A DNA stretch of 64,000 nucleotides. It comes from a virus. Lineage: Duplodnaviria > Caudoviricetes. The position numbers and the translations under genes are program-made. The stretch's first letter is position 1, and every line of letters begins with the position of its first letter. A model generated the notes under the pieces. That model saw only the letters and a list, made by a program, of their open reading frames with translations. It did no database searches and was not told where the DNA came from. Shown here in pieces: positions 47,027-63,969 of the stretch. Location: the IMG/VR virus record IMGVR_UViG_3300027974_001530. The stretch is one strand, 5' to 3'.

Positions 47027-49087
47027 ATGTTAGATTTTGTAGACGATAGTAATGATAAAAATAAAAAAAAGAGTGAGGCCGGAACACCTGTATTAGATAA
47101 TTTTAGTAAAGATCTAATAAAACTTGCCGAACAAGGTAAATTAGACCCAGTAATTGGTAGAGAAAAAGAAATCTTTAGAATTGCCCAAGTTTTATCAAGG
47201 AGGAAAAAAAATAACCCTATTATTATTGGTGAACCAGGAGCAGGTAAAACTGCAATCGTCGAGGGTCTTGCAATGATGATTTATGGTGGAGAGTGCCCAA
47301 AAAATTTGGTAGATAAAAGAATTGTGTCTTTAGACATTAACTCAATTGTTGCCGGCACAAAGTATAGAGGTCAATTTGAAGAAAGAATGAAGGTGATTAT
47401 TGAAGAACTTCAGAACACCCCTAATATTATTTTATTTATAGATGAAATTCATACTATGGTTGGTGCGGGTAATAGTTCAGGTTCTTTAGACGCATCAAAC
47501 ATATTTAAACCTGCGTTATCAAGAGGTGAAATTCAGTGTATTGGAGCAACAACCCTTGATGAATATAGAAGACATTTTGAGAAAGATGGTGCATTAGAAA
47601 GAAGATTCCAAAAGATTATTGTAGATCCATCAACCAAAGAAGAAACGTTTCAAATACTACAACAAAGTAAGGGTAAATATGAAGAACATCATAAGGTTAA
47701 TTATACCGATGAATCACTTCGGTTATGTGTTGAGTTAGCCGATAGATATATTACGGATAGAGAGTTTCCTGATAAGGCTTTTGATATTTTAGATGAGGTT
47801 GGGTCAAGAATGCAAATAGATATAAAATTACCTGAAGAAATTGAGTTATTAAAAGTTGAGGCCCAAGAAATAAAGAAAGAGAAGGCGACCGTTATTAAAA
47901 AACAAAACTACGAACAAGCAGCCGAATTAAGAGATAGAGAAAGAAACGTTTTAATTAAATTAGAAGAGGAGAAAAAGAAATTTGAGGATCATCTTAAAAA
48001 TAGTAAACGAGGTATTCCTGATGAAATCATTTATGAGGTAGTTTCAAACATGACTAAAATTCCTGTTAGTAAAATAAATGTAGATGAGAAAAATTCGTTA
48101 GTTAATCTTGAATTAACTTTAAATAAATACGTTATTGGTCAAGAAGAGGCGGTTGGAAAAATATCAAAATCTATAAGAAGAAATAGAGTTGGGATTAAAG
48201 ACCCTAATAGACCAATCGGTTCGTTTATATTTTTAGGATCAACAGGTGTTGGTAAGACGTTTTTAGCAAAAAAATTAGCAAAAGAAATATTTGGTAGTGA
48301 AGATAGTTTAATAAGAGTTGACATGTCTGAGTACCAAGAGAAACATACCATCTCAAGACTTATTGGATCCCCTCCAGGATATGTGGGACATGAAGAAGGG
48401 GGTCAATTAACAGAACAAGTTAAAAATAAACCATATTCTGTCATACTTTTTGATGAGATTGAGAAGGCAAATAAAGACATATTCGCAACCTTACTACAGA
48501 TGTTAGATGATGGACATTTAACTGATGGGTTAGGCAGAAAGATCAACTTTAAAAACTGTTTAATTATTATGACATCAAATATTGGTGTTAGAAAATTACA
48601 GGACTTTGGGAATGGTGTTGGATTTAAAACAAATAATAATAGTGAAGTTGTCCAAGAGGAGTATAAAAGAGACGTATTGAAAAAAGAATTACGCAAATTT
48701 TTTGCACCTGAATTTTTAAATAGAATTGATGATGTTGTAATATTTAATTCTTTAGTAAAAGAACATATTGATAAAATTGTAAAACTTGAAATTGATAAAC
48801 TAATTGACAGATTAACATCTATGAAATATAACGTTTCTTATGAAGGTTCTGTGACTGATTTTATATCAAAAGTTGGTTTTGATGATCAATACGGAGCAAG
48901 ACCAATTAAAAGAGCGATCCAAGATAAAATCGAAGACTTAATTTCAGAAAAGATATTAAACAATGAGGTTATAGAAGGGGGCGAATATATGTTATTTGTT
49001 AAAGGAGAAGGTGATGATCAAACAATAGAAATTGAGGATAGGTCAAAACCAGAACCAAAGAAAAAAGGAAGAAATAAAAAGGGATAA
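47027..49087 (+). CDS. clpC: ClpC/ClpA-like Hsp100 ATPase lacking the N-terminal Clp-repeat domain
   Basis: Two AAA+ modules (GEPGAGKT, FIDEIH; GSTGVGKT, LFDEIEKA), GAKYRG-type pore loop GTKYRG, short UVR-type M-domain (YEQAAELRD), ClpP-docking VGF loop; begins at TPVLDNFSKDL. Confidence 0.85.
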   Translation: MLDFVDDSNDKNKKKSEAGTPVLDNFSKDLIKLAEQGKLDPVIGREKEIFRIAQVLSRRKKNNPIIIGEPGAGKTAIVEGLAMMIYGGECPKNLVDKRIVSLDINSIVAGTKYRGQFEERMKVIIEELQNTPNIILFIDEIHTMVGAGNSSGSLDASNIFKPALSRGEIQCIGATTLDEYRRHFEKDGALERRFQKIIVDPSTKEETFQILQQSKGKYEEHHKVNYTDESLRLCVELADRYITDREFPDKAFDILDEVGSRMQIDIKLPEEIELLKVEAQEIKKEKATVIKKQNYEQAAELRDRERNVLIKLEEEKKKFEDHLKNSKRGIPDEIIYEVVSNMTKIPVSKINVDEKNSLVNLELTLNKYVIGQEEAVGKISKSIRRNRVGIKDPNRPIGSFIFLGSTGVGKTFLAKKLAKEIFGSEDSLIRVDMSEYQEKHTISRLIGSPPGYVGHEEGGQLTEQVKNKPYSVILFDEIEKANKDIFATLLQMLDDGHLTDGLGRKINFKNCLIIMTSNIGVRKLQDFGNGVGFKTNNNSEVVQEEYKRDVLKKELRKFFAPEFLNRIDDVVIFNSLVKEHIDKIVKLEIDKLIDRLTSMKYNVSYEGSVTDFISKVGFDDQYGARPIKRAIQDKIEDLISEKILNNEVIEGGEYMLFVKGEGDDQTIEIEDRSKPEPKKKGRNKKG

Positions 49088-49114
49088 TAATTTTTTTAAA
49101 TAAATTTTTTTTTA

Positions 49115-49122
49115 TAAATTTG
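49115..49122 (+). promoter_or_regulatory. Bacteroidota-type -7 promoter (TAAATTTG)
   Basis: 15 nt upstream of ATG 49138. Confidence 0.6.
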
Positions 49123-49137
49123 TTTTAATAACAGAAT

Positions 49138-49560
49138 ATGAAAACAATTTTTTTAACCCTATTTTTTTTCTTTAATTTTTTATCATTTAGTCAAAAATTA
49201 ATAATTCACGTATTTGAAAAACAAGAAATGATTTCATTTCATAGAACATCGGTGGATTCTGTGTTAATGAAACCGGATTTAATATATGATGTTAATAGTG
49301 ATTACACCAAATATATTATAGACCTTGGTAATGAAACTTCCACATATTTTATTGATGGTGTTGAAATTAGTTCGTTACCAATTAAATTTGTAAATCTTGG
49401 TAATGGGTCACTTAAGATTAATATATTGGAAAAAAGTTTTGATTATGGTTTGATCGTTAATACAAATTATGGGAGCGAAAATGTTATTTGGTTTTGGTTT
49501 ACAGATAACTCAACCACAGTAAAAAATATTACAAAGTTTAATATAGAAAAACCATCATAA
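49138..49560 (+). CDS. Exported protein (signal peptide ...FLSFS|Q)
   Basis: MKTIFLTLFFFFNFLSFS|QK; beta-rich mature domain. Confidence 0.75.
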   Translation: MKTIFLTLFFFFNFLSFSQKLIIHVFEKQEMISFHRTSVDSVLMKPDLIYDVNSDYTKYIIDLGNETSTYFIDGVEISSLPIKFVNLGNGSLKINILEKSFDYGLIVNTNYGSENVIWFWFTDNSTTVKNITKFNIEKPS

Positions 49561-49592
49561 AAAAATCCCCATCTTTTCAGGTGGGGATTTTT
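49561..49592. terminator. Bidirectional terminator between convergent genes
   Basis: aaaaatccccatc-tttt-caggtggggattttt. Confidence 0.8.
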
Positions 49593-49608
49593 ACATAACT
49601 TAATATTT

Positions 49609-50097
49609 TTATTTTTGGGTTGGGGAAGTTAATAAAGTTTTTTTAACCGCATCTATCCCACTTCTAACGGCAATTGCAAGTTTATCTTTAACTGCAGCAT
49701 CTGCAGTATTTAAAACATTTACTAAACTACCGCTAAACTGCATTAGTTTACCATCCACTATTTTTGTTCCGTAGTTGTCTAATGGGTCCTTTTCTTGTTG
49801 TACACCTGTTGATAAGTTTGCGGTAATTGCGACACCAAAATCTTGTGGTGATTTAACTAATTCTTTACCATCTTTGTAAATAACTATATTTCCGTGATAA
49901 TCATCAGCTCCTTTTACAAATTTTGCGGTGTATGCAGGTAATTTATATGCCGTCATAACTCTGTTAAATTCATTAACAAATGCCGCGGCTTGAGTGTTAG
50001 CAAGAGATTGTTCCATTATATAATGTCTTGATGTAGCGTTTTGGTGCATTTCCAAAATTCTACTTTTTTCTTGTTCTGAGATTATAAATTTTATCAT
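49609..50097 (-). CDS. Putative head-packaged protein with N-terminal leader
   Basis: MIKFIISEQEKSRILEMHQNA...IME|Q; TATTTAT at 50120-50126. Confidence 0.7.
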   Translation of the reverse strand: MIKFIISEQEKSRILEMHQNATSRHYIMEQSLANTQAAAFVNEFNRVMTAYKLPAYTAKFVKGADDYHGNIVIYKDGKELVKSPQDFGVAITANLSTGVQQEKDPLDNYGTKIVDGKLMQFSGSLVNVLNTADAAVKDKLAIAVRSGIDAVKKTLLTSPTQK

Positions 50098-50169
50098 AAT
50101 ATTTTTTTGTATTTAACAAATAAATATATGAATTTTAAAGAAATTAAAGGATATGAGTAAATTTTTTTA

Positions 50170-50955
50170 TTAATGTTTATTATTACCTAACTCCTCTATC
50201 ATTAATTTACCCACCTTAATACCATTGTATGTGTCGTCAACAACCACGTATTCGTTTCTTGTGTGGTAATTGTAGTACCCAATAGAGATATTGAAACAGG
50301 ACAACCCAAAGTTCTTATTTAATGGGTATATATCCGTGTATGGGTGTCTATGGTATTCTGTATCGCCAGGAAAATGTTCTGTTATTAGTCTACCCCCAAC
50401 ATTAAAGAATTCACTGTCTCTATTAAACATTGGTTTGTTCATTAAAAATTCTGAAATCATATTATTTTCGGGGGCATCAAATTGTATAACGTAACCAACA
50501 TTAGTGAAAAAATTAGGATCCGCATTAAATGAACCCTTACATCCTGTTTCTTCAGCAACAAAGAAAGCGGCTTTTAGATTAGGTAATTCTTTTAGTAGTT
50601 CTAAACACCCATAAACCCCACATTTATCATCACCACCAATTCCTGTTGGGTCTCCGTTATTATTATATGCCTTTAAAGATAGTTTAACATTACCTTGAGC
50701 ATCAGGTAACATCTCTTCTTTAACATTTATTGTGTCAATATTATGTACAGTATCAGTATGTGCGACCACACAAGGAAAGTATTCAATATCCTGATCAGTT
50801 TGTTTTGTTGCATATATGTTGTATAAGTCATCAACATAATATGTGATGTTATTTTTATCTAACCAATCACAGATAAATTGTATCAATAAATCTTCTTGAT
50901 ATGTTTTTGAGGGTACCGATAACACCTCTTTTAGTAATTCGTAATTTCTTTCCAT
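50170..50955 (-). CDS. Zn-dependent M20/M28/M42-clan peptidase
   Basis: VVAHTDTV, GIGGDDKCG, FFVAEETGCKGS, VIQFDAP and YHTRNE metal-binding motifs. Confidence 0.85.
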   Translation of the reverse strand: MERNYELLKEVLSVPSKTYQEDLLIQFICDWLDKNNITYYVDDLYNIYATKQTDQDIEYFPCVVAHTDTVHNIDTINVKEEMLPDAQGNVKLSLKAYNNNGDPTGIGGDDKCGVYGCLELLKELPNLKAAFFVAEETGCKGSFNADPNFFTNVGYVIQFDAPENNMISEFLMNKPMFNRDSEFFNVGGRLITEHFPGDTEYHRHPYTDIYPLNKNFGLSCFNISIGYYNYHTRNEYVVVDDTYNGIKVGKLMIEELGNNKH

Positions 50956-50959
50956 TTTA

Positions 50960-50967
50960 CAAACTTA
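50960..50967 (-). promoter_or_regulatory. Bacteroidota-type -7 promoter (TAAGTTTG), 4 nt from the ATG (likely leaderless mRNA)
   Basis: Plus-strand caaactta at 50960-50967. Confidence 0.6.
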
Positions 50968-50984
50968 CGAAAAATAAATGGTGT

Positions 50985-52064
50985 TTACAAAATAATACCT
51001 TTTATTTTTTTAAGTTGTTCAAATAATTCAGGATGGTAAAGTGATAAATTTAAATCCTCAACATTATCCACAGATCTATCTTCTGAAGGATGGTTTGGTT
51101 TTCTAGAGGTAAAATTAAGTTTTCCTGTTTTTATATCTAGATCTGAAAAGTACACTTCAATTTTTTTTGAGGGGATATTAATCCATCTTCTAAAACCTCC
51201 TAATTTTTCCACAATATTAAACAATTCGTTGTACCTTTCAAAACTTACATCTTCAGATAAATCTTCTTCTACCTTTTCTAAGATATCATTTAAATGACGG
51301 GCAGTTTCTTTGTGAAAAGAGTCCCATTCAAAATCATCACACCAAACATTATATTCCAATTCATACCAGTTACCTCTAGATTCTCTATCGTATTTTGTTA
51401 ACATTAACTTTAATAATTCTGGTATATCAAAATTTTTGGCCTCTAAAGTCTCGTACCAATGTATTAATACACCTAAAGTGGTTTTAAATCTGTAATTCCC
51501 ATAAGTCTCACTAATCCCAAGTTTTTTAAATGGATTTTTAGTTTCATTTTTTAAAACATTACTAACCGCCCTTCTAGTACAGTCTTGGTTCAAAGAACCA
51601 TATTCACTAACAATATATTCAATATCACCAAACCTTTTGTCTAAATAAGTCGCAATAATACCCATATTGGCATCCGTATCGTCATCTCGTAAAACCATTG
51701 ATGGGTTAACTAATCTTAGAATTTGTTTAACCAAGTTAAGATTTTCTGGACTAAATTCTTTTAATATGTACCCCTCTTTCCAATCTTCTTCATATCTGTA
51801 ATAATCATAATCATAATCGTAATAATAATTATCCATAAATTTATTCCACACATAGATATCTTCCTCATCCTCAATACCTAAAATTTTAAAATATTCTTCA
51901 GTATTTTCAAATTCAAAATAAATAACACTTGATGACGGGGAATCATAATTGTATTTAATATCATCGATTATATCAGGATACTGGTATTTACTAAATCTAA
52001 CATCCGTTAAATCCTTTTTTGATAATTTTTTTAAATATTCGTATGTTTCCCCAATTTCTGACAT
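50985..52064 (-). CDS. Hypothetical acidic Tyr-rich protein
   Basis: 359 aa; TATTTAT at 52070-52076. Confidence 0.75.
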   Translation of the reverse strand: MSEIGETYEYLKKLSKKDLTDVRFSKYQYPDIIDDIKYNYDSPSSSVIYFEFENTEEYFKILGIEDEEDIYVWNKFMDNYYYDYDYDYYRYEEDWKEGYILKEFSPENLNLVKQILRLVNPSMVLRDDDTDANMGIIATYLDKRFGDIEYIVSEYGSLNQDCTRRAVSNVLKNETKNPFKKLGISETYGNYRFKTTLGVLIHWYETLEAKNFDIPELLKLMLTKYDRESRGNWYELEYNVWCDDFEWDSFHKETARHLNDILEKVEEDLSEDVSFERYNELFNIVEKLGGFRRWINIPSKKIEVYFSDLDIKTGKLNFTSRKPNHPSEDRSVDNVEDLNLSLYHPELFEQLKKIKGIIL

Positions 52065-52108
52065 ATAAAATAAATATCAAAATATTTTGATTATTGTAAT
52101 TTACCCAT

Positions 52109-52124
52109 TATATTTGTATTTATA
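52109..52124 (+). promoter_or_regulatory. Adjacent host-type (TATATTTG, 52109-52116) and TATTTAT (52117-52123) promoter motifs for the tmRNA
   Basis: Both motifs read back-to-back ~25-40 nt upstream of the tmRNA 5' end. Confidence 0.55.
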
Positions 52125-52147
52125 TAAACAAAAGTTATTTGACATAT

Positions 52148-52558
52148 GGGGGTGTTTTTGGATTTGACAGGTATTGGCTGAGAATAAAGGGCACGTAGAG
52201 ACTGAATTAATCTCTTTAAAAACTGATTCACAAAAACAATCGGCGACGTTTTATCGAAAATGGAAACTCTTGGTTTACTAAGAGGTTCTGAAGTTACTGT
52301 AGCTTAATTAGTTAACGGAAACGGGGGTCGGTGGACACATAACCTAGCAACAGAAGTCCTTTAAGGTGGAATACGACTGAACCCGAAATCGAGTCGTTTA
52401 TTGGTTGTTAGTTTACGATAATGAAGAACAAACTAACCTTGTTTTCGATCAAGTTAAAAATCGAATATTTTGGAACGTTAGAAAATGTTAACCTAAACGT
52501 GTAGTCCTTGTTTGACAGGATATTATGGACCGGAGTTCGAGCCTCCGCACCTCCACCA
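52148..52558 (+). ncRNA. ssrA: tmRNA (one-piece), tag reading frame 52242-52307 encoding (A)GDVLSKMETLGLLRGSEVTVA*
   Basis: 5' GGGGGTG...GGATTTGAC; 3' CCGGAGTTCGAGCCTCCG T-arm, then CACCTCC-A-CCA; 7-bp acceptor stem with G3.U70; length 411 nt. Confidence 0.95.
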
Positions 52559-52561
52559 ATT

Positions 52562-52596
52562 AAAATCCCCATCTTTATGGTGGGGATAAAAAAAAA
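52562..52596. terminator. Hairpin downstream of the tmRNA
   Basis: atccccatc-tttat-ggtggggat. Confidence 0.6.
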
Positions 52597-52641
52597 TAAC
52601 TATCTTTATAAAAAAATCATTAATTTAAACCTTTAATAAAA

Positions 52642-53088
52642 ATGAAAACATTATTTTTTTCTTTAATCATGACATTGTCAAGTTTTTTGTCATTTTCCCA
52701 AAAAAATGTAAATATTTTTGCCACAGACTTTTATGATTTTACTATGACTATAGATGAGTTAATGTATTTTATGAGTACAGACTCAACAATGAATAGATGG
52801 TCATATATGGAAAGTTATGAATCAGATTATTTTATGGTTTTTAATATCAACTTTAAAGAAAATAATGTAATATCAAGTGTTGATGAAGGAGATACGTTAA
52901 AAAATTATCAAATTACATCTAAAAATATTTTAAATAATAAAAATATTTTTTTAAGTATTTCTGACTCTAATAGTAAATCACGAATGGTTGTAGTTTATAA
53001 AAATAATCAACCATTTAGATTGATCACTTACCATATTGAGGGTAATTACGCTATTGGGTATATATCAAAAAACGTAAGTCTACAATAG
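52642..53088 (+). CDS. Exported protein (signal peptide ...FLSFS|Q)
   Basis: MKTLFFSLIMTLSSFLSFS|QK; same signal-peptide end as 49138..49560. Confidence 0.75.
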   Translation: MKTLFFSLIMTLSSFLSFSQKNVNIFATDFYDFTMTIDELMYFMSTDSTMNRWSYMESYESDYFMVFNINFKENNVISSVDEGDTLKNYQITSKNILNNKNIFLSISDSNSKSRMVVVYKNNQPFRLITYHIEGNYAIGYISKNVSLQ

Positions 53089-53102
53089 ACTTACGTTTTT
53101 TT
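53067..53102. terminator. Bidirectional terminator
   Basis: aaaaaacgtaagtcta-caa-tagacttacgtttttt, perfect stem between convergent genes. Confidence 0.85.
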
Positions 53103-53124
53103 TATCTCCATAAAAATCTCTTTA

Positions 53125-53622
53125 TTATGCGGTAACGTTATACAATTTACAAATTGCATCAGTCATTTCGCTTCCAGCCGTAAATCCAGGTCGACCCCAA
53201 GTAACTAATACACCTTTTGCGTTTTTAGTTTTACCACCGGCCTTGATTGTGAACGGGTCTTTATATCCTCCTTGGACCACGGCCTTAACCGCAGTTTCTA
53301 CCTCAGCTCTTGTTTTAGGGGTTGTATTAAGGAAAACACCAAATGCCGTCCTTTGATCTATATTTGTTGGGTCTGCCTCTGTGTTAACTACTTGGAAACT
53401 TCCATCTCTCATATTCATTAAATTTCCTAAAGTTTTACTACCCGCAAAATTTACGTCCCATGCCGTCCCATTTTTTTTATATTGTAATTGCGGGAACAAT
53501 GCACTTTTATATCCAGTTACCGAATCAAACGCTAAAACAGTATTTTGAGCAAATCCTTCACTAATTACTCTTCTTACTATTCTTGCAAGATCTGATTCTG
53601 TTAGTCTAATTATTCTTTTCAT
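53125..53622 (-). CDS. Putative head-packaged protein with MKRIIRLTESDL leader
   Basis: MKRIIRLTESDLARIVRRVISE|G; TATTTAT at 53652-53658. Confidence 0.7.
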   Translation of the reverse strand: MKRIIRLTESDLARIVRRVISEGFAQNTVLAFDSVTGYKSALFPQLQYKKNGTAWDVNFAGSKTLGNLMNMRDGSFQVVNTEADPTNIDQRTAFGVFLNTTPKTRAEVETAVKAVVQGGYKDPFTIKAGGKTKNAKGVLVTWGRPGFTAGSEMTDAICKLYNVTA

Positions 53623-53680
53623 AATGTAAAATTATTTATTTATCTTTAAATATAAATACATCAGTATATAAAAAAAAACA

Positions 53681-53710
53681 AAAAAAAAGGGATCGATTCA
53701 CATCGTCCCT
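53681..53710 (-). terminator. Intrinsic terminator of the large ncRNA
   Basis: Minus strand AGGGA-CGAT-gtga-ATCG-A-TCCCT followed by T8. Confidence 0.85.
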
Positions 53711-54624
53711 ATTAATTTTTTTCTTATAAGATTTAACCTAAAAATAAAAACCTGAGATTACAGTTTTTGTAAGTGTCTTTCGAGTCATTATTGGTTCTAC
53801 TCTTATCCACAGGATTTTGTCCTGTAACACTCATTACCGATTGGTTAGACCAATCACTCCTTGACGACATAACTACTCTCTTACTAATCCTGTCTCCTCA
53901 AGATTGCGTCCTGATTCGGTCTTCGACGACCTAGAGATTTTTCATAAAAATACGGTCAAACTTGCGGTTATCACGTTCCACTGACTGCCAGTGAATAGGT
54001 GGGTAACTTCCGTTATATCGTGACGGACACTTTTGCTTTATAGTTTATAAATGTTACTTCATTAACATAAAAGTTTTTGTGTCGTGGATTGGTCAAAGCA
54101 GTGGTCCGTCTTAAGCTTCATTATCTTTTGAATAACAAAATACCAAACTGCCTCGTGAAATGTCCCCATTTCAATATTTCAAGATTACTTCGAGATTAAC
54201 CCCTTGGTAGAAGTTTATCAAGGACAATGTCAGCACCACCTGTTTGTTGTCATACCTTTCGGTTTTAAGTACCCTATCGTACTGAGACCCGCAATAACAA
54301 CATTGGAAATATTGATTCTTGCATCGTCCCTACGAGTTATTCCTATTAGAGTTCCCTCCTCAACAAGATGACCCACATCACCTCATCATAAAATCACTTT
54401 CCCTACACCGTTGGCCTCGGTACTAAAGATTTTATGGTATCTCGCCTGTGTACTCGACCTCAATGATCCGAAGACCATTAAGACGCAAACCCGTTACACT
54501 TGGGGGTTCACTTTATCCTACTTTCGTAGTTTATTTTATGGACTATACACGGCCCAATATCTTTATCAGTTTCATTCTTAAACCCGAAGGTTCTTAACTT
54601 AATCCTGAACGGATAATATCTAAC

Positions 54625-54636
54625 TTTTCAAAGAAC
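54625..54636 (-). promoter_or_regulatory. boxA-like antitermination element (GTTCTTTGAAAA)
   Basis: Immediately after the 5' hairpin of the ncRNA leader; matches the rRNA-leader boxA pattern. Confidence 0.5.
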
Positions 54637-54663
54637 GTTATCGGACTTTTCCGATTTGTTTTA

Positions 54664-54671
54664 CAAAGATA
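54664..54671 (-). promoter_or_regulatory. Bacteroidota promoter P2 of the ncRNA (TATCTTTG; TTTG at 54692-54695, 20-nt spacer)
   Basis: Both -7 and -33 elements present with canonical spacing. Confidence 0.75.
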
Positions 54672-54748
54672 AGAATACTTTTTGAATTTTCCAAATTTTT
54701 TCTAAACTTTTTTTATTTCTTATTTGGACGTTTTCCAAATTTGTTTTA

Positions 54749-54756
54749 CAAAGTTA
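54749..54756 (-). promoter_or_regulatory. Bacteroidota promoter P1 of the ncRNA (TAACTTTG)
   Basis: Duplicate of the P2 unit 85 nt upstream; TTGAC at ~54775-54779. Confidence 0.6.
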
Positions 54757-54797
54757 CGACATTTGTTTTGTTTTGTCAAGTACTTTGTGAACTTTTT

Positions 54798-54947
54798 TTA
54801 ATATTTTTCTACGTAAACTTTAAACGTCCCGTATTTTCTTGCCATAACATCGGCAAATTCAAAATTTGGAGTAAAAAGTCTTTGACCTTTATCGTTAAGG
54901 TAACTAAAAAGTTCGATCTCGATTACTTGTGTTTCTAATTCTGTCAT
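54798..54947 (-). CDS. Small protein (49 aa); missed by the ORF track
   Basis: MTELETQVIEIELFSYLNDKGQRLFTPNFEFADVMARKYGTFKVYVEKY; strong promoter upstream. Confidence 0.6.
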   Translation of the reverse strand: MTELETQVIEIELFSYLNDKGQRLFTPNFEFADVMARKYGTFKVYVEKY

Positions 54948-54972
54948 TTTTCTTGTTTTTAAATATACAACA

Positions 54973-55001
54973 ATTATAAACCATATATTTTAAACAGTCA
55001 A
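54973..55001 (-). promoter_or_regulatory. TTGACT-N17-TATAAT promoter
   Basis: Near-consensus -35/-10 upstream of the 49-aa ORF. Confidence 0.6.
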
Positions 55002-55018
55002 CAAAGTCATTAAAAAAA

Positions 55019-56542
55019 TTAAGACCATCCTTGTTGTTTTGCAAATTCTTGCCTTTTTATTTTTGCGGAAGTCCTATCTGAAGGTCTCTCAACATTATCA
55101 ACAATCCAATCTATCCAAGTTCTTACGTCCTTCTCACTGTTAATTTGTTCTTCTTTTATTCTTTTTGACATAAACTCAACTTGTTTATTATAATCAAATA
55201 AAATTCTTAATTTTTCTTCATCTGAAGAAGTATCAACATTTACGTTATAGTTCTTCAAGAATGAAACTCCCATTCCACCACAAATATTATATTGCCATAA
55301 ACCAAAAGAACAGTATTTTTTACCATCAATGTTTATTGATCTATTTGAACTTTCCCCGTAACTTCCTGAATCCCCTTTAGCCTTAACGTTAAAAACACTT
55401 TCACCAAAAGCGTTTGCAACAACTCCTTTGGCGGCATTATCTGAAAGACCATAAGATTTTAAATCATTAAGAAGTTTTATTGGAACTACTTTATCAATTC
55501 CTCCACCTACGTAAATACTTTTATTAACACGTAAAATTTGGTTCCCTTTATCTGTTACAGTATTTGGACAAATATTATTTATTGTTTTAACTAAACTTTT
55601 AACAAATAGTTCATCTCCATAATTCATTTCACTATTAATGTAATCAAATACGTCTTTATATTTTTTCCCATCAATTTCCTTTCTTTCAACCATTTTATTT
55701 AGTTCATCAAGTTCATAACAACTACTTAATTTTTTAATTGCATCATGTATTGAAGTTTCATCGGTACCGATACCTTCTGAAGATAGTATTATTTTATTTA
55801 AGACTCCAGATACGGAATCAGTATTAACATCAACGTCTGTAATACCAAATCTTGAAGCAATACCACTTATATCCGATTCAGGTCTTTTAATATCTAAAGA
55901 ACTTAGAGCGGCTGCGGTTAATCCGGCTGCCGTACCCATTATTGTTTTAGTGTCAATAGGGGTTTCTTCACCTTTACTTGTTGTAATTGATAAATTACCT
56001 AATAAACTATTATCCACACCCTCAATATTACCGTTTACGTCAACGAAATCTTTAACATCACCAACTTTAACTGAAACGTGTGCATGATCAGGAATTCCTA
56101 ACTCACCCTTTACGATATATGCAAGTAATTGACCTTTTTTAATAGGATCCCCATCCTCAACAACAATATTTGTAATATGGGTATAAAAAACGTCAGGATT
56201 ACCACCACTACCCCTAACGGTAATACTGTCACCATAAATTCTTTTACCTCCACTAGATTTTAATCCGGGAGGGTTATCTGTAATTTTATCAACATATCCA
56301 TCGGATATTGAATAAACAGGTGTACCTTCAGGTGCCATTATATCGTAGGCGTTATTACTCCACCAATCCTTTCCTGTTGGGTCTGGATGTCTTGCGGCAT
56401 GTGAATTAGGTCCTCCTCCCCAAGTAGGATCCACTTTATCAAATATTTTAGTTGAAAATTTAGGTGCCGTAGTATCTATTGATTCATTAATTGACATTAA
56501 TGTTTTTATTCTTCTTATTTCTTCAGATAAAAAATGTTTCAT
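55019..56542 (-). CDS. Multidomain peptidoglycan hydrolase: leader, M23 peptidase, annexin-like repeat, phage-tail-lysozyme domain (start re-called at ATG 56542)
   Basis: M23: NNAYDIMAPEGTPVYSISDG, YTHI, HAHVS; annexin-like EGIGTDETSIHDAI; lysozyme: LSDNAAKGVVANAFGES, SFGLWQY, QVEFM; TATTTAT at 56558-56564. Confidence 0.8.
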   Translation of the reverse strand: MKHFLSEEIRRIKTLMSINESIDTTAPKFSTKIFDKVDPTWGGGPNSHAARHPDPTGKDWWSNNAYDIMAPEGTPVYSISDGYVDKITDNPPGLKSSGGKRIYGDSITVRGSGGNPDVFYTHITNIVVEDGDPIKKGQLLAYIVKGELGIPDHAHVSVKVGDVKDFVDVNGNIEGVDNSLLGNLSITTSKGEETPIDTKTIMGTAAGLTAAALSSLDIKRPESDISGIASRFGITDVDVNTDSVSGVLNKIILSSEGIGTDETSIHDAIKKLSSCYELDELNKMVERKEIDGKKYKDVFDYINSEMNYGDELFVKSLVKTINNICPNTVTDKGNQILRVNKSIYVGGGIDKVVPIKLLNDLKSYGLSDNAAKGVVANAFGESVFNVKAKGDSGSYGESSNRSINIDGKKYCSFGLWQYNICGGMGVSFLKNYNVNVDTSSDEEKLRILFDYNKQVEFMSKRIKEEQINSEKDVRTWIDWIVDNVERPSDRTSAKIKRQEFAKQQGWS

Positions 56543-56553
56543 ATATGATTTTA

Positions 56554-57036
56554 TCATATAAATACTTCGTCGGGTTGAAACCAACTTGGAATAACCCTGT
56601 TTTTCCAACTAACGATAAGTTTTTTTCCTTCTCGGTAATAATTTCTATATGATTCGATCACATCGTTTCCTATTTTAAATTCATCACCCATCGCTAATGG
56701 TGGGGATGTAAAATCAACATCGTGGATATTTGGTTTATTTATTAAACACCATTCTATTACATCCTGAGATTTGTGTCTTTTACCATATCGATAAGTGTAT
56801 TCTTTACATAACTCCAAACCAAGATCACATAAATAAAGATAATTTGAGAGGGACTCTCTAACCCATATTGAACATGGGTGATTTTTGTGGGATAATTTAT
56901 ATGGGGCCTCATTTCCAATTACCCAGTGAGTCCCACATAAAAGTTGTGCGGTTTCTAATATCATCTTGACAACGTGTTTATCACAATGATATTGAGCGCA
57001 TTTTTTTGTATCAAAATCTAAAAAGAAAATATTCAT
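56554..57036 (-). CDS. denV: Pyrimidine-dimer DNA glycosylase / endonuclease V-like protein
   Basis: MNIFFLD....CAQYHCDKHVVKMILETAQLL, YKLSHKNHPCSIWVR, EYTYRYGKRHK, SYRNYY; TATCTTTA promoter at 57041-57048. Confidence 0.75.
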   Translation of the reverse strand: MNIFFLDFDTKKCAQYHCDKHVVKMILETAQLLCGTHWVIGNEAPYKLSHKNHPCSIWVRESLSNYLYLCDLGLELCKEYTYRYGKRHKSQDVIEWCLINKPNIHDVDFTSPPLAMGDEFKIGNDVIESYRNYYREGKKLIVSWKNRVIPSWFQPDEVFI

Positions 57037-57072
57037 ACCGTAAAGATATGAACTTTAATTGTATTTACAAAA

Positions 57073-57681
57073 TTATTGTTGTAAGTGCGTCATTAAAACT
57101 CCACCTAAAGAGGTTGCATGAACCAATAAATGATTTATTGATTCAATGTCAAGTTTTGTTTTTCTTTTTGTGTAATCAAGACCTAAAGTACCTATAAACC
57201 TATCATCAATTGTTTTAATTGCAAATAAGTAACTTGATTTACATCCCGTGTCTTCGGCAATGTATTTTAATCCGTATGTTGCAATTGTTTCATCTTTGAA
57301 GTCGGACACCTCAATTACATCATTACTTAATAATTGATTTATTGATTTTGAAAATAAATTTACGGGAATATTATGAAAATTAGTTTGTACGGATTGAACT
57401 CCTGGATGTACTGTTTCGTACATTATTGAAAACTTAGCCATTGATTTACCTGTTGGGTAGAAGTTACCTCCATTGTGAAATTGAGTTATCCAAACTCTAT
57501 CGGCATTAAATTCATCTTTAATATGTTCTATTTTGTTTGTTACCAACTCCGCAACCCTCAATGTGTCTTTAACCATATCCGGTTTTTCTTTATTCTCTAA
57601 TTTCTTTTTAATATAAAGAAGTAATATGGGACCAACAACTCCTGTTATAAATGCTATTATAATTCCTACATAACTTTCCAT
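57073..57681 (-). CDS. Single-TM membrane protein with a GAF-like domain (holin-T-like architecture)
   Basis: TM residues ~5-23; then 'EFNADRVWITQFHNG...FSIMYE......GCKSSYLFAIKTIDDRFIGTLGLDY', a GAF-type strand pattern. Confidence 0.55.
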   Translation of the reverse strand: MESYVGIIIAFITGVVGPILLLYIKKKLENKEKPDMVKDTLRVAELVTNKIEHIKDEFNADRVWITQFHNGGNFYPTGKSMAKFSIMYETVHPGVQSVQTNFHNIPVNLFSKSINQLLSNDVIEVSDFKDETIATYGLKYIAEDTGCKSSYLFAIKTIDDRFIGTLGLDYTKRKTKLDIESINHLLVHATSLGGVLMTHLQQ

Positions 57682-57686
57682 ATTTA

Positions 57687-58340
57687 TTAAACTTTTTTAA
57701 CTAATGATCTTGAGATTTCAGGTGGAGTTATTTTTCCTACACTTAAAACTTTACTAATTCCGTCTTTTGTTCCCCAAGTATCTAAACTAGAACATTGAGC
57801 AATCTCTTTTGCTCCTTTATTTTTTTTCAATCCATTAACAATACAATCATATCTACCATTTGTCAATGTTTTTACGGTTGCTTCAATACCGTCCTTTTCG
57901 TTTTTATAATTTCTAACACCACTAAGACATTTACCCTCTTTTTTACTTAAACAATTCCAAAACGTAGATTCAGGCATAGATTGTGTTGTGTTAAATGGAT
58001 TGTATGAAGATTTTGCCCCTTCGGCTTGTCTCCAAGAATAAAAAAACGCCATATTTTCCTTTGTTATAGGTGCGTCTATTTTTTCTAAAACTTTTTCGTA
58101 GAATTTTATGTCTTCGTCTGAAGGATCTTCAATTTTGTAACTTTTATATTCTTTTGTTACTTCTCCTGTCTTTTCTTTTTCTTCAAAATCAACTCCAGTT
58201 AATTCTTTAAATTTTTTCTTAATATCTTTTATCGTATCTGATTTTTTTATGGTATCAAGAACATCAGAAAACCAACCTTCCTCAATAGAATTCATTTTTC
58301 TAATTCTGGTTTTTTCCGATTCTGAAATTAATTTCTTCAT
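57687..58340 (-). CDS. Lysozyme-like putative cell-wall hydrolase with N-terminal leader
   Basis: WRQAEG....YNPFNTTQ...GVRNYK...DGIEATVKTLTNGRY, a lysozyme/transglycosylase-like signature; TATTTAT at 58359-58365. Confidence 0.6.
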   Translation of the reverse strand: MKKLISESEKTRIRKMNSIEEGWFSDVLDTIKKSDTIKDIKKKFKELTGVDFEEKEKTGEVTKEYKSYKIEDPSDEDIKFYEKVLEKIDAPITKENMAFFYSWRQAEGAKSSYNPFNTTQSMPESTFWNCLSKKEGKCLSGVRNYKNEKDGIEATVKTLTNGRYDCIVNGLKKNKGAKEIAQCSSLDTWGTKDGISKVLSVGKITPPEISRSLVKKV

Positions 58341-58375
58341 ATTAATTTGATTTATATGATAAATATTACGTTAAA

Positions 58376-58404
58376 TTAAAAACCCCCAAAAAATTTGAGG
58401 GTTT
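58376..58404 (-). terminator. Probable terminator after the holin-like gene
   Basis: AAAACCCTC-aaattttt-TGGGGGTTTTT on the minus strand. Confidence 0.55.
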
Positions 58405-58422
58405 TACGTCTATCCACTAAAT

Positions 58423-58590
58423 TTATTTTTTATCGACAATAGACCAAATGGCACCTGTTAATGTCATTGCACCACCGATAATTTCGGTTACTACTGACTC
58501 ACTAGCAAGTCCTTTCATTATAAAGATACCACCAACGAATGTTAATCCGTGTCTGATAATCCCCATAATTTGTTCTTTAGATAATTTCAT
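58423..58590 (-). CDS. Small two-TM holin-like protein (55 aa); missed by the ORF track
   Basis: MKLSKEQIMGIIRHGLTFVGGIFIMKGLASESVVTEIIGGAMTLTGAIWSIVDKK: two hydrophobic helices, basic C-terminus, directly after the endolysin; resembles Pam3-gp28-type putative holins. Confidence 0.65.
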   Translation of the reverse strand: MKLSKEQIMGIIRHGLTFVGGIFIMKGLASESVVTEIIGGAMTLTGAIWSIVDKK

Positions 58591-58627
58591 AAAATTTATT
58601 TTTTTATAGTTTATTTTATTATAAATA

Positions 58628-59452
58628 TCACTTTAATAAGTTATAGTACTCTTTGAAGTGTTTTATTCTATCAGGTAATCCAATAGTTCCACCATTAACT
58701 CGTTTTGTAACTGCGGTAACTGTGACATCATCCGCCCCCTTATCACATATTGACCAAAGTTTGTTTGAGTCAAAAAAGAACGCTGCCGAAGCCAATGGAT
58801 ATTTGGTCGCAACAAGATCAGGATTTGACACACAATCCTCACCAATAAATTTTGTAAAACTCGTATAATTTCCTTTTCCTGTTAATTGTATGTAACCTCT
58901 ACCTCTAAATTTATAACCTTCTTTTGATGTCTCATCTCCGTTACTCATACGGTTAGCATATACCCTTGATGCGATCTTTTCAGGTTGTTTAGCGTATGAT
59001 TCGGCCAAGTTACCAGGAAAGTATTTACCAAACGTTCTTTTTAATCCGTCAGCAGAATAATTTAAATTTTCTGACACCGCCTTAAATCCTCCTGACTCGT
59101 GTCCACACTGTGATAAAAAGTGAGCAAGTCTAAGATTGGTTGTGATATTAAATTTCTTTGCAGTTTCAGGGATTTGGGCAATAACAACATCAGGAATATG
59201 ACCTTTTAATTTTTCAATGTTTAATGGTCCACCTGAAGGAATTACAAAATCTTCTTTAACTACCTGAGTTGTTCCGAACATTTTAGACCAAGTACCATCA
59301 CCAACAATACCATCTGAGGTTAATCCATTAGATAATTGCCATTCTTTTACCGCTTTTTCTGTTCCATGACCAAATGATCCGTCCGCAGTAAGTCCTAATT
59401 TTGTTTGGAGTTTTTTTACATCCTCTCCTTTGGATCCATTTTTTAATAACAT
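58628..59452 (-). CDS. Endolysin: PG-binding domains plus GH19 (chitinase/lysozyme) catalytic domain
   Basis: LKNGSKGEDVKKLQTKLGL.ADG.FG..TEKAVKEWQ...DGIVG..TW; RLAHFLSQCGHESGGF, FRGRGYIQLTGKGNY, VTKRVNGGTIGLPDR. Confidence 0.92.
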   Translation of the reverse strand: MLLKNGSKGEDVKKLQTKLGLTADGSFGHGTEKAVKEWQLSNGLTSDGIVGDGTWSKMFGTTQVVKEDFVIPSGGPLNIEKLKGHIPDVVIAQIPETAKKFNITTNLRLAHFLSQCGHESGGFKAVSENLNYSADGLKRTFGKYFPGNLAESYAKQPEKIASRVYANRMSNGDETSKEGYKFRGRGYIQLTGKGNYTSFTKFIGEDCVSNPDLVATKYPLASAAFFFDSNKLWSICDKGADDVTVTAVTKRVNGGTIGLPDRIKHFKEYYNLLK

Positions 59453-59464
59453 AGATTTTTTATT

Positions 59465-60139
59465 TTATTGTTTATTTTCTGTTGCGTATTTTATACCCAT
59501 AATAGTTCCCACTATTGAAAAGGCGTTTGTTAGAAGTATCCCAAATATATTAGACCAAGTAGCACTTATTACTTGAGTATCTTTACCCATTATAAGAGTA
59601 AAAACATACACTCCTGTGGTAACAATACCAACACCAATAATAATATAAAGAGCAACTTTTACTATATTGGATATTAATTCTGTTTGGTTTCTTTTTTGGA
59701 GTATATCCAAGTCGTTTAATGCGTTTGTTTTTGCCGTTTCTGACTGAATTCTAGCCTGTTCAGATTTAATCATTTCTTTTTGAAGTTCCTGTTGGATTTT
59801 TTCATTCCCCACTCTCCAATCCATCAATTCCTCGTTCTGTTTTTCTATTTGTTCTTTTTGTTCCTCAGCTTCTTTTAATGTTAACTGAAGATCTTCCATC
59901 ATTTTTTGATTTTCCACATTTAGATTTGATAACTCATTATTTTGCGTTTGAATTTTTTTTGTTATCTCCAATCTTTTACGTCTTGAATCTTTGTCTTTCT
60001 CCGAACACTTAGTTAAGTATGATTTAAATTCATCATTATCTGTTTCAAACAACTTGATAATATTTCCCTCAATCCCAATATTTTTGGAATCAAAGAGTTT
60101 AATTAAATTTTCTTCACTATTTGTATCTAACTTTATCAT
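59465..60139 (-). CDS. Coiled-coil protein with two C-terminal TM helices, in the two-component operon
   Basis: Long heptad region (~50-150), TMs ~160-182 and ~195-213; overlaps the receiver gene by 4 nt; 12 nt upstream of the endolysin. Confidence 0.8.
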   Translation of the reverse strand: MIKLDTNSEENLIKLFDSKNIGIEGNIIKLFETDNDEFKSYLTKCSEKDKDSRRKRLEITKKIQTQNNELSNLNVENQKMMEDLQLTLKEAEEQKEQIEKQNEELMDWRVGNEKIQQELQKEMIKSEQARIQSETAKTNALNDLDILQKRNQTELISNIVKVALYIIIGVGIVTTGVYVFTLIMGKDTQVISATWSNIFGILLTNAFSIVGTIMGIKYATENKQ

Positions 60140-60573
60140 TTATATACTTTAAAAGGTAATGTTCTATTTTTATACCCCTCATAATCCTTTCTGAACTCTT
60201 CTAAACGAGGTTCAATATCATCTGATTTAATAATCCAGAATTGAGCACCAGCCTGGAGCGCTTTTGCTTGTTCTTCCGGTTCGTTTGATGATGATATGAT
60301 ACCAATAACTACGTGATTACCATATTCAAAATTAACTTTTCTAATTAACTCTATACCATCAAAAGAACTACCAATTATGTTTAAGTCAACAAACACACAT
60401 TCAGGTTTATCATTATTGTCACCATCCTGGAACCATTTTTGAAATAGTTTTGCTGCCTCGTCAGAACTATTTAACGCATTTAAAGACAAACTTATGTCAA
60501 GTAACGAACAAGCGTCTTCAAATACCAAATGGAATAAATCCTCATCATCTACTAATAAAATTGAATCAATCAT
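60136..60573 (-). CDS. Single-domain response regulator (CheY-like receiver)
   Basis: ILLVDDED, phosphoacceptor VFVDLN, IISSS, AQFWIIKS; no output domain. Confidence 0.92.
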   Translation of the reverse strand: MIDSILLVDDEDLFHLVFEDACSLLDISLSLNALNSSDEAAKLFQKWFQDGDNNDKPECVFVDLNIIGSSFDGIELIRKVNFEYGNHVVIGIISSSNEPEEQAKALQAGAQFWIIKSDDIEPRLEEFRKDYEGYKNRTLPFKVYK

Positions 60574-60591
60574 TTTTTTCTTTTTTGTTTT

Positions 60592-62211
60592 TTATTTTAT
60601 TTTTATTTTTATTTTTGTTCCTATTTCATTTTTCTCACAGGTAATATTAAACCCGTGTTCTTCTAAAATAGCAACGCAAATATTTAATCCCAAACCAGTA
60701 CCAGATTCTTTTTGTCCTTCTTTTCTTGTATATGGTTTACATAGGTGGTCAAAATCTTCTTGTGTGATTCCTCTACCATTATCTTGAATGTAAACATAAT
60801 TCTCGTCTGAAGTTATTTTAACAAATTTAGAATCCGAATCATTATACTTTAAACCGTTTCTAATCAAGTTATCAACCGCAGTACAAAATAGTGCTTCGTT
60901 TACCTCAATAGTTGGTAACTCATCTATAATAACTTGACTAATATATGCAGTAGATGATAGATAATCAGATAGGATTAATTTTAAATCACATTCCGCTTTA
61001 TTTAAAACAACATCTTTTTTAACCAAATTGGTAAATTCGTAAACCCCTTTATATACTTTTTGAGAATGTTTTAAACCTTCTTTAATCATTCTAAGTGGGG
61101 ATTCTATTTTTAAATTTTTTATATCTTCAGGAGTTAATCTTCGTTCTAAAGAGCTTAATCCTCTTGGCATATATGTATTAATACCAGAGTGCATATCGTG
61201 TCTTAATATCTTTGCGGCATGCTCTAAATAGGTATTTTTCTTTTCAATCTCCATTTGTTGATTAATACTTTGGGTGATGTCAGTGGCGATTTTCATTACT
61301 CTATATGGTTTCCCATCGGTTCCTATGATGGGGTTATATGTCGCTTGGAGATAAATTAAAGATCCGTTTTTTTTCTTTCTAATGATTTCACCCATAAAGA
61401 ATTGACCACCTTTTAAAGTTTTCCAAAAGTTTGAATATTCTTCAGAGTCTTTTACCACATCTTCAACAAATATACTATGATGTTTTCCAACAAGTTCATC
61501 GTGCGAATCATAACCTAAAGTACTTAAAAATAAATCATTTGCAAATTTTATGTTACCATCTAAATCAAATTCAATAACGGCATTTGATCTGTTAATCGCA
61601 TTCATTCTATTTGATATTTCTTGTTCAGTCTTTTTTAAAGAAGTTAAGTCTTGACGAATTGACATAAACTCTAACAATTTACCGTTTTCATCAAAACTAC
61701 ATTTAATAAAAGTATCCACATAATAAAGACTTCCATCTTTTGCCCTATTGACACAAACCTCATTCCAAAGACCCTTATTCACAACAACAGTTTTATACAT
61801 ATTAGACCAAAACTCTTTTGGGTGTGTTCCAGAATTTACAATATTGTGGTCTTTACCAAGAACATCTTCTAATGAATAACCTGAGATTTCGGTAAATTTT
61901 TGATTAACGTATGTAATCTTTCCTTTTGCATCAGCTTTAGATATGATGGAAGAAGAATTTAAGAAATGTTCTAATTCTACCAATTTATCCACCGATTCTT
62001 TAGATACAGTATCTTTAGTGGAATTGATAAAGTCTTTAATTAATAACGCAGATATAGGGATGAGAGAAATAACCCCAAAAAATTCTAGCCATCTAGTTGT
62101 TTCTGTAGATTCTCGTAACCCAATAAGAACCGCAATTTTAACACACATAAATGCAATCATTAGTAAAGCGGCGATAACTAATGTTATTTTTATTCTTAAA
62201 CGATATTTCAT
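60592..62211 (-). CDS. Membrane sensor histidine kinase: 2 TM, PAS, PAS, HisKA-like, HATPase
   Basis: PAS1 ISKADAKGKITYVNQKFTEISGYS..DVLGKDHNIVNSGTHPKEFW...NRAKDGSLYYV; PAS2 AVIEFDLDGNIKFANDLFL..LGY...GKHHSIFV...ATYNPI; H-box LRHDMHS; N-box NLIRNGLKY; G1 QDNGRGI; G2 GTGLGL. Confidence 0.92.
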   Translation of the reverse strand: MKYRLRIKITLVIAALLMIAFMCVKIAVLIGLRESTETTRWLEFFGVISLIPISALLIKDFINSTKDTVSKESVDKLVELEHFLNSSSIISKADAKGKITYVNQKFTEISGYSLEDVLGKDHNIVNSGTHPKEFWSNMYKTVVVNKGLWNEVCVNRAKDGSLYYVDTFIKCSFDENGKLLEFMSIRQDLTSLKKTEQEISNRMNAINRSNAVIEFDLDGNIKFANDLFLSTLGYDSHDELVGKHHSIFVEDVVKDSEEYSNFWKTLKGGQFFMGEIIRKKKNGSLIYLQATYNPIIGTDGKPYRVMKIATDITQSINQQMEIEKKNTYLEHAAKILRHDMHSGINTYMPRGLSSLERRLTPEDIKNLKIESPLRMIKEGLKHSQKVYKGVYEFTNLVKKDVVLNKAECDLKLILSDYLSSTAYISQVIIDELPTIEVNEALFCTAVDNLIRNGLKYNDSDSKFVKITSDENYVYIQDNGRGITQEDFDHLCKPYTRKEGQKESGTGLGLNICVAILEEHGFNITCEKNEIGTKIKIKIK

Positions 62212-63897: not shown

Positions 63898-63969
63898 TAG
63901 CCCCACCTAGAATCGAACTAGGAACTAATCTTTAGAAGAGATTCGTTATATCCATTTAACTATGGGGCC
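63898..63969 (-). tRNA. tRNA-Arg(UCU), CCA not encoded
   Basis: GGCCCCA/TGGGGCT acceptor stem; GTTA/TAAC D-arm; AATCT-CT[TCT]AA-AGATT anticodon arm; CCTAG-TTCGATT-CTAGG T-arm. Confidence 0.95.

Follow-up and report, generated by a model that had tools for sequence, protein, structure and literature searches.

A full-length GOLLD RNA with a boxA-like leader, convergent with a tmRNA gene, in metagenomic phage DNA

The GOLLD RNA of the window

The stretch of DNA analysed here, referred to as the window, comprises the 64,000 nucleotides (nt) of IMG/VR record IMGVR_UViG_3300027974_001530 (Duplodnaviria; Caudoviricetes), and it encodes on its minus strand an RNA of the GOLLD family. The primary transcript is estimated at 54659..53681, and a conserved core of 900 nt lies within it at 54642..53743, a length equal to the median of 72 distinct full-length relatives (range 859-939 nt). 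A preliminary description, made from the letters of the stretch, had outlined an ornate GOLLD-like RNA at 53681-54657, at most 2 nt away from this estimate, and had depicted it as GC-enriched and free of open reading frames (ORFs). Both properties are present: the longest ORF on either strand between 53623 and 54797 has 56 amino acids (aa), and two 1-kb bins of the stretch have a GC content of 0.34-0.35, compared with about 0.29-0.30 nearby, with 0.39 within the Rfam GOLLD match.

When the entire window was scanned against Rfam with gathering thresholds, three matches were obtained, namely GOLLD, transfer-messenger RNA (tmRNA), and a tRNA at 63898-63969. The GOLLD match (RF02032) is located at 54155..53749 on the minus strand, with a score of 287 bits (cut-off 150) and an E-value of 5.7e-81; it spans positions 1-416 of the 416-position model, is not truncated, and has high posterior probabilities. 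No Rfam match to ROOL or OLE, the two other families with which a comparison had been proposed, was obtained in the window at these thresholds. Judged by its sequence, the stretch of about 1 kb is a full-length GOLLD RNA on the minus strand and a member of a known family, as the preliminary description had supposed.

Secondary structure and covariation

Analysis with RNAalifold of the 72 distinct full-length relatives predicted 219 pairs organised in 38 helices. Canonical pairs occupy 96% of the cells of this consensus, a share that falls to 37-44% in controls whose 3′ partners were displaced by 1-3 columns, and changes on both sides were found in 154 out of the 219 pairs, against 55-79 in the same controls. 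Covariation across homologues, which had been named as a check, is thus present. The preliminary description had also proposed that covariation in the absence of an Rfam hit would indicate a new RNA class; this does not apply, since the Rfam match and the covariation occur together.

Covariation extends over both domains of the RNA. In the 5′ domain (54174..54559, helices H2-H20), a tally of the helix list gave compensatory double changes in 77 of 105 predicted pairs, and an independent alignment of 18 5′-domain sequences gave double changes in 50 of 109 pairs. Helices H22-H38, which belong to the 3′ domain (53749..54155), covary as well. Between the domains lies hairpin H21, GAAAUG-GGGA-CAUUUC (54157..54172), with compensatory changes in all six pairs. 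In the window sequence, 205 of the 219 consensus pairs are canonical, and most of the non-canonical exceptions sit in two hairpins that were judged to be out of register in the MAFFT alignment. The minimum free energy of the 900-nt core is -231.9 kcal/mol, compared with -215.4 +/- 4.5 kcal/mol for dinucleotide shuffles (z = -3.64).

Several minus-strand hairpins with UUCG or GAAA loops had been described in advance, and two of each were located among the structures of the stretch: the UUCG loops belong to hairpins at 54590-54583 and 54476-54465, and the GAAA loops to hairpins at 54529-54518 and 54263-54254. Within the 3′ domain there are also an A/U-rich internal linker (54093-54021) and, side by side at 53931-53898, two small hairpins. 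The first of these has a self-complementary UCGA in its loop, where CGCA is present in most relatives.

The 5′ domain and its relatives

The Rfam GOLLD model represents the conserved 3′ domain only (416 positions), and the roughly 500 nt upstream needed a separate test. A distant blastn search located the same 5′ sequence in LR745206.1, an uncultured huge phage of 635 kb, where a GOLLD 3′ domain scoring 287 bits follows it directly. In the phage GenBank collection no more than two DNA matches came up, both of them weak. With a 17-base signature from the 5′ half, 19 IMG/VR contigs were retrieved, and all 16 that were scanned possess a GOLLD 3′ domain beginning about 360 nt after the signature; fifteen of these domains are complete (287-332 bits) and one is cut by the contig end (183 bits). 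Many GOLLD-bearing contigs are 200-290 kb long. When genome contigs were scanned with the same signature, the sole match was a contig of 2 kb from a Bacteroidetes metagenome-assembled genome (MAG), with no sign of prophages there, which is weak evidence for the host.

The IMG/VR sample was broadened by a pattern scan for the 3′ domain to at least 117 GOLLD loci, to which all counts out of 117 refer. In 98/117 of these loci, an nhmmer profile built on the window-type 5′ domain finds a match, always immediately upstream of the 3′ domain, and the window sequence itself scores E = 9e-149 against it. The 5′ domain was further compared, block by block and by eye, with env-38, a GOLLD from a marine metagenome whose cryo-EM structure (PDB 9MEE; Kretsch et al. 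2025, PMC12286853) is a 14-mer cage of D7 symmetry, using the construct sequence from the supplement of that paper. The env-38 construct is collinear with the window through both domains, its first base corresponding approximately to window position 54560. Since env-38 is collinear from its first base onwards, the 5′ half is, on this comparison, the known GOLLD cap domain and not a new one; the suggestion that it may be a longer or novel domain did not hold. The additional length of the window RNA over the 833-nt construct is a transcription leader of about 95 nt, composed of a hairpin, the boxA-like element, and a variable hairpin.

Promoters, leader and 3′ ends

The preliminary description had attributed an own promoter and an own terminator to the RNA, and both were located. 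The proximal promoter (54664..54695, minus strand) is composed of a -33 element TTTG at 54695-54692 and a -7 element TATCTTTG at 54671-54664, and it is predicted to be a Bacteroidota-type sigma-A promoter. In Flavobacterium, the sigma-A -7 box TAnnTTTG lies at -12 to -5 (PMC9723704), so that the start is estimated near 54659. Of 69 distinct GOLLD leaders, 59 have a TAnnTTTG box ahead of the leader motif, at a distance of 25-60 nt. The scan for sigma-70 consensus promoters missed this promoter, and the simple terminator scan missed the terminator because of its bulge.

Alignment of the upstream regions revealed a conserved leader of about 95 nt, in which the promoter TAnnTTTG is followed by a covarying hairpin and then by GUUCUUUGAAA. 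The hairpin, AUCGGA-AAAG-UCCGAU (54640..54655, -6.8 kcal/mol), occupies a boxB-like position, and its stem is kept across loci by compensatory variants (UCAGGA/UCCUGA, UUCGGA/UCCGAA, GAGGG/CCUC). This hairpin (54655-54640) was also flagged by these scans as terminator-like on both strands, a candidate that was rejected: no U-tract follows it, and it covaries as a leader element. The boxA-like element GUUCUUUGAAA occupies 54626..54636, and its first nine bases, GTTCTTTGA, are exact in 62/69 distinct leaders. Leader hairpin and element are also present where tRNA-Met replaces the promoter (loci L001 and L040). Between the boxA-like element and the 5′ domain lies a variable leader hairpin region (54560..54625), which includes the CCUUCGGG hairpin, corresponds to an indel-rich alignment block, and is outside the env-38 construct. 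The length of this region differs between relatives, and its single-sequence fold is no better than those of shuffles.

Upstream of the proximal promoter, a second promoter and hairpin module was found at 54732..54800. It is a 69-nt direct repeat, 71% identical to 54647-54715 at a spacing of 85 nt, and it contains TTGACA at 54779-54774, a -7 box TAACTTTG at 54756-54749, and a hairpin AUUUGGAAAACGUCCAAAU at 54740-54722 that folds at -5.8 kcal/mol (z = -3.45). Many IMG/VR GOLLD loci (L022-L123) possess a same-strand tRNA-Met(CAT), either about 20-70 nt upstream of the boxA motif or at most about 10 nt from the 3′ end; the window GOLLD lacks tRNA-Met and has tandem promoters instead.

At the 3′ side, a U-tract at 53741..53748 comes right after the last GOLLD hairpin and is a possible mature 3′ end. 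Further downstream lies an intrinsic terminator (53681..53710) with the structure GGGACGAU-GUGA-AUCG(A)UCCC, in which a bulged hairpin at 53710-53690 is followed by U9.

The boxA-like element in rRNA operons

The 16S leader and the 16S-23S spacer are the two classical boxA positions. Twenty-five genomes were sampled from the phylum of the Bacteroidetes MAG, yielding 13 loci in which 16S was matched completely and flanking sequence was available. The motif GTTCTTTGA[ACT]A was found 85-217 nt upstream of 16S in 6/13 of these rRNA loci and in the 16S-23S spacer of ten out of the thirteen, where chance would give about 0.003 occurrences per 700-nt leader by our own estimate. The forms recorded in Bacteroidota (L125-L137) are GTTCTTTGA(A/T)A in 16S leaders and GTTCTTTGACA in 16S-23S spacers, often behind a hairpin, and together they may serve as a usable boxA consensus for Bacteroidota. 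The GOLLD leader motif differs in one position from the gamma-proteobacterial boxA consensus GYTCTTTAANA (PMC5725501). As a negative control, 900 nt upstream of Lactobacillales-type GOLLD loci were searched, and the boxA-like motif was present in none of the twelve.

Presence in RNA libraries

Seven lake-water metatranscriptome runs contain 60-81% of the sampled words of the stretch. In a comparison of the region 49000-59000, contigs with zero differences cover 53741-54568 in four runs, with contig depths, themselves a poor measure, of 59-373, compared with few contigs at a depth of 2-3 (0-3 overall) for the flanking genes in the same libraries; the tmRNA is covered by one contig at a depth of 10. 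Parts of the stretch without contig cover were not counted as evidence. We read these contigs as support for transcription beyond DNA carry-over. In three of the runs the contigs break off at 53741, within the U-tract that trails the final GOLLD hairpin, and this shared stop is a weak hint of the GOLLD 3′ end. A leader query over 54566-54662 (6 sampled words) matched DNA runs and none of the core-positive RNA runs X4-X9, an absence that is non-evidential and from which no claim about processing is made.

The convergent tmRNA gene

A phage tmRNA gene is located on the plus strand at 52148-52558 (Rfam tmRNA, 104 bits), convergent with GOLLD and 1186 nt from the GOLLD 3′ end. It is preceded by a -7 box TATATTTG at 52109-52116 and by a boxA-like GTTATTTGACA at 52134-52144, which ends 3 nt before the mature 5′ end. 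The combination of TAnnTTTG and a boxA-like GTT(A/C)TTTGA just before the mature 5′ end was found in 32 of 34 distinct tmRNA upstream regions, that of the window included. With an nhmmer profile, a tmRNA gene was detected in 43/117 sampled GOLLD loci; all 43 are downstream and on the opposite strand, at distances of 108-3292 nt from the GOLLD 3′ end. Of the sixty loci whose downstream sequence extends for 3 kb or more, twenty-six possess the tmRNA. ARAGORN misses the window tmRNA and most phage tmRNAs detected by Rfam and nhmmer, and its counts were discarded.

Between the two RNA genes of the window (52642-53622) there are two small ORFs of 148 aa (plus strand) and 165 aa (minus strand), neither with a Pfam or PHROG match. 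In the closest relatives, GOLLD and tmRNA are only 108-173 nt apart, so that the gap can be regarded as a variable cargo slot. In related viral contigs, a group I intron (Rfam, 90-98 bits) was found at 7035-7637 of L008 and 118-341 of L020; in L008 it runs into the end of the tmRNA match, a sign that the phage tmRNA gene there may be interrupted by the intron. The window also encodes a ClpB/ClpC-like double AAA+ unfoldase (AAA_2, AAA_lid_9, ClpB_D2-small) at 47027-49087, about 3 kb from the tmRNA. The searchable literature contained no paper joining GOLLD with boxA or antitermination and none describing a GOLLD-tmRNA linkage; searches of it also turned up no account of the Bacteroidota promoters of GOLLD, of its conserved boxA leader, or of a tmRNA fixed in convergent orientation to it.

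Phage context and host

The window is phage DNA. Its genes include those for a major head protein (31623-33500), an M23/tail-lysozyme protein (55019-56608), a DenV-like glycosylase (56554-57036), and a GH19 endolysin (58628-59452). Eight of the surveyed stretches lie on a single piece of this genome, and the evidence points to a jumbo phage. The nearest viral record is 20% complete at 59 kb according to CheckV; it lacks GOLLD and probably overlaps another part of the window (G001). Upstream of the GH19 endolysin gene, on the same strand, a PAS-PAS histidine kinase and a protein with a stand-alone receiver domain are encoded at 60136-62211. The host is most likely a member of Bacteroidota, as suggested by the promoter type, the boxA-like element, and the MAG contig.

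Comparison with known systems

Structures have already been solved for GOLLD, a described family, and its presence in a lake phage is no surprise. Similar to env-38, the window RNA has collinear blocks in the 5′ cap and 3′ ring domains, an A/U-rich linker, and a core of similar size. The env-38 construct has 833 nt compared with the 900 nt of the window core, the extra ~80-95 nt at the 5′ side of the latter being the leader, which is absent from the construct. While env-38 lies downstream of tRNA-Met, the window GOLLD has its own tandem promoters. We take the two small hairpins at 53931-53898 to be P21a and P21b, marks that set the 14-mer type apart from the 12-mer S. agalactiae type (PMC12990946), an assignment that is our own reading. 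A GC/CG self-complementary switch was reported for bridge B8, an inter-chain kissing loop (PMC12286853); the P21a-like loop of the window has CG (UCGA) where env-38 has GC, which is consistent with this switch.

The Streptococcus and other Lactobacillales prophage type, represented by Javan345 and by the S. agalactiae GOLLD, a 12-mer (PMC12990946), shares the Rfam 3′ domain (275 bits in Javan345) and the phage context. In contrast to the window, its 5′ domain is undetected by the window-type profile, its P21 region is shorter, no boxA-like leader occurs within 900 nt upstream in any of the 12 loci, and the surrounding GC content is 0.38-0.41 instead of 0.28-0.36. ROOL and OLE are, like GOLLD, large, highly structured RNAs forming protein-free homo-oligomers, and ROOL is phage-associated and cage-forming (PMC12286853), whereas in sequence and secondary structure both are unrelated to the window GOLLD.

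The leader resembles that of rRNA operons (boxB-boxA; NusB/NusE/SuhB), where a promoter and a hairpin are followed by the identical 11-mer. Tandem promoters and a long, structured, untranslated product are further features that GOLLD shares with rRNA operons. Unlike these, GOLLD is phage-encoded, no rRNA follows the leader, and no boxC or leader-trailer stem was identified.

Proposed mechanism

Taken together, we read the locus as a full-length GOLLD of a freshwater jumbo phage with a probable Bacteroidota host, carrying a boxA leader and forming a cage by homology, and we assign to this reading a probability of roughly 0.85. Under this reading, host sigma-A RNA polymerase would start near 54659 at TTTG / TATCTTTG, with the second copy of the promoter module available 85 nt upstream. 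Within its first ~35 nt, the transcript would present a small hairpin and then GUUCUUUGAAA, corresponding to the boxA of Bacteroidota rRNA operons, and this boxA would recruit the host NusB/NusE antitermination complex. Recruitment of NusB/NusE by the leader is rather probable, given the identity and the position of the element. Nus-bound polymerase would be Rho-resistant on the 0.9-kb untranslated transcript, and ordered co-transcriptional folding would be favoured. Two stops are possible for transcription, namely the U-tract that follows the last hairpin (about 53741) and, further on, the strong terminator (53710-53681).

The two-domain RNA (5′ domain 54559-54174; 3′ domain 54155-53749) would then assemble into a protein-free, closed dihedral cage, with the 5′ domains as caps and the 3′ domains as rings. 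Cages are established for env-38 and the S. agalactiae GOLLD (PMC12286853, PMC12990946), and by homology the formation of a cage by the window GOLLD is likely. As to its role, GOLLD might take part in the control of translation by the phage late in infection, by holding or shielding tRNA, tmRNA or ribosome-associated components. A translation-related function is put forward tentatively. It is favoured because of the tRNA and tmRNA neighbourhoods and because of a ribosome pull-down of GOLLD, which is cited second-hand in PMC12286853. A more specific proposal is that in freshwater phages of Bacteroidota GOLLD and the phage tmRNA are a conserved convergent pair of stable RNAs, each under a host-type promoter and the rRNA boxA of the host, in which a cage RNA made by the rRNA antitermination machinery would act with tmRNA to take over or protect translation late in infection; we regard this as rather unlikely.

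Alternative readings

Since the Rfam model is confined to 416 positions at the 3′ side, and Lactobacillales-type GOLLDs such as that of Streptococcus phage Javan345 give no match to the 5′ profile, the stretch might be seen as a new class of large RNA sharing only its 3′ module with GOLLD. This is hardly credible, as the blocks of the 5′ half follow those of the env-38 5′ domain in the same order and this half accompanies the 3′ domain in 98/117 loci, and a conserved 3′ region combined with a variable 5′ region has already been described for GOLLD (PMC12286853, PMC12990946); the env-38 comparison refutes it. Only slightly less remote is that the window carries a decayed or silent GOLLD relic, the signal in the RNA libraries coming from DNA carry-over or from related phages. 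Metatranscriptomes can contain DNA, and the evidence consists of assembled contigs, but the model match is full-length with high posterior probabilities, the consensus pairs are canonical in the proportion given above (205/219), promoter, boxA, and terminator are intact, and zero-difference contigs reach depths of 59-373 where neighbouring genes in the same libraries reach 0-3. For the leader, the octamer UUCUUUGA might be one strand of a long-range helix, H1 (54635-54628 with 53864-53857), whose other strand is an invariant stretch of the 3′ domain, UCAAGGAG, and not a protein-binding boxA; H1 would tie both domains together, like an rRNA leader-trailer helix. RNAalifold predicts this 8-bp helix on the 72 sequences with 96% of cells canonical, but none of its 8 pairs covaries and the pairing score is explained by conservation on both sides. 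In a fold of the 5′ domain only, the octamer pairs with CGAAG instead. The env-38 construct, which lacks the leader, still forms the 14-mer, and the same 11-mer is found where the rRNA boxA lies in Bacteroidota genomes, as well as before phage tmRNAs, where no such partner is present. Because env-38 assembles without the leader and the same element precedes phage tmRNAs, H1 is the less likely reading, and we consider it improbable.

The function of GOLLD leaves more room for disagreement. As a decoy or shield, GOLLD might instead counter host defence or RNases, for instance by sequestering an RNA-binding defence protein, in which case the tRNA and tmRNA neighbourhood would be mere clustering of stable-RNA genes driven by sigma-A and boxA. 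The promoter and boxA module shared by GOLLD and tmRNA gives a purely expression-based reason for such clustering, and variable cargo genes lie between both RNA genes (0.1-3.3 kb). However, no defence or anti-defence gene was identified adjoining GOLLD, the convergent orientation is strictly kept (43/43), and the ribosome pull-down, as cited in PMC12286853, points elsewhere. A decoy or shield thus appears unlikely, and the role in translation is favoured over it because of the tRNA/tmRNA neighbourhoods and the pull-down.

Other observations weigh against parts of the proposed reading. The conserved arrangement of GOLLD and tmRNA may be inherited synteny among related phages and not functional coupling. 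No tRNA adjoins the window GOLLD, the nearest being a tRNA-Arg at a distance of about 9 kb. Window-wide, the boxA 9-mer shows no significant enrichment (36 matches compared with 29.8 +/- 5.2 expected), so that the boxA argument rests on position and on invariance across loci; the putative function as boxA is itself inferred from identity and position, and the invariant octamer could instead pair with UCAAGGAG. The predicted host phylum rests on the promoter type, the boxA, and one MAG bin. The RNA evidence is composed of assembled contigs from runs picked with this stretch, and contig depth is a poor measure. Finally, the stoichiometry varies by GOLLD subtype, being 10, 12 or 14 (PMC12990946), and the oligomeric state of the window RNA is taken from homology.

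Significance

Few natural RNAs are known to build protein-free cages that exceed the ribosome in size, and GOLLD is among them; the question of its function dates from 2009. The locus described here is ordinary as a member of the family, and it is the comparison across loci that narrows the search for a function. The large 'lake' clade of GOLLD carries Bacteroidota promoters, which would place it in Flavobacteria-like hosts, where genetics is possible. The presence of the host rRNA boxA at the start of the RNA suggests Nus-assisted, Rho-proof synthesis and folding, which is relevant to the co-transcriptional reconstitution of assembly. The most constant neighbour in the clade is the phage tmRNA, in a fixed convergent orientation, and this offers a testable link to ribosome rescue. 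If the proposal of a GOLLD-tmRNA pair is true, it would provide the first concrete functional partner for GOLLD, together with a tractable group of hosts.

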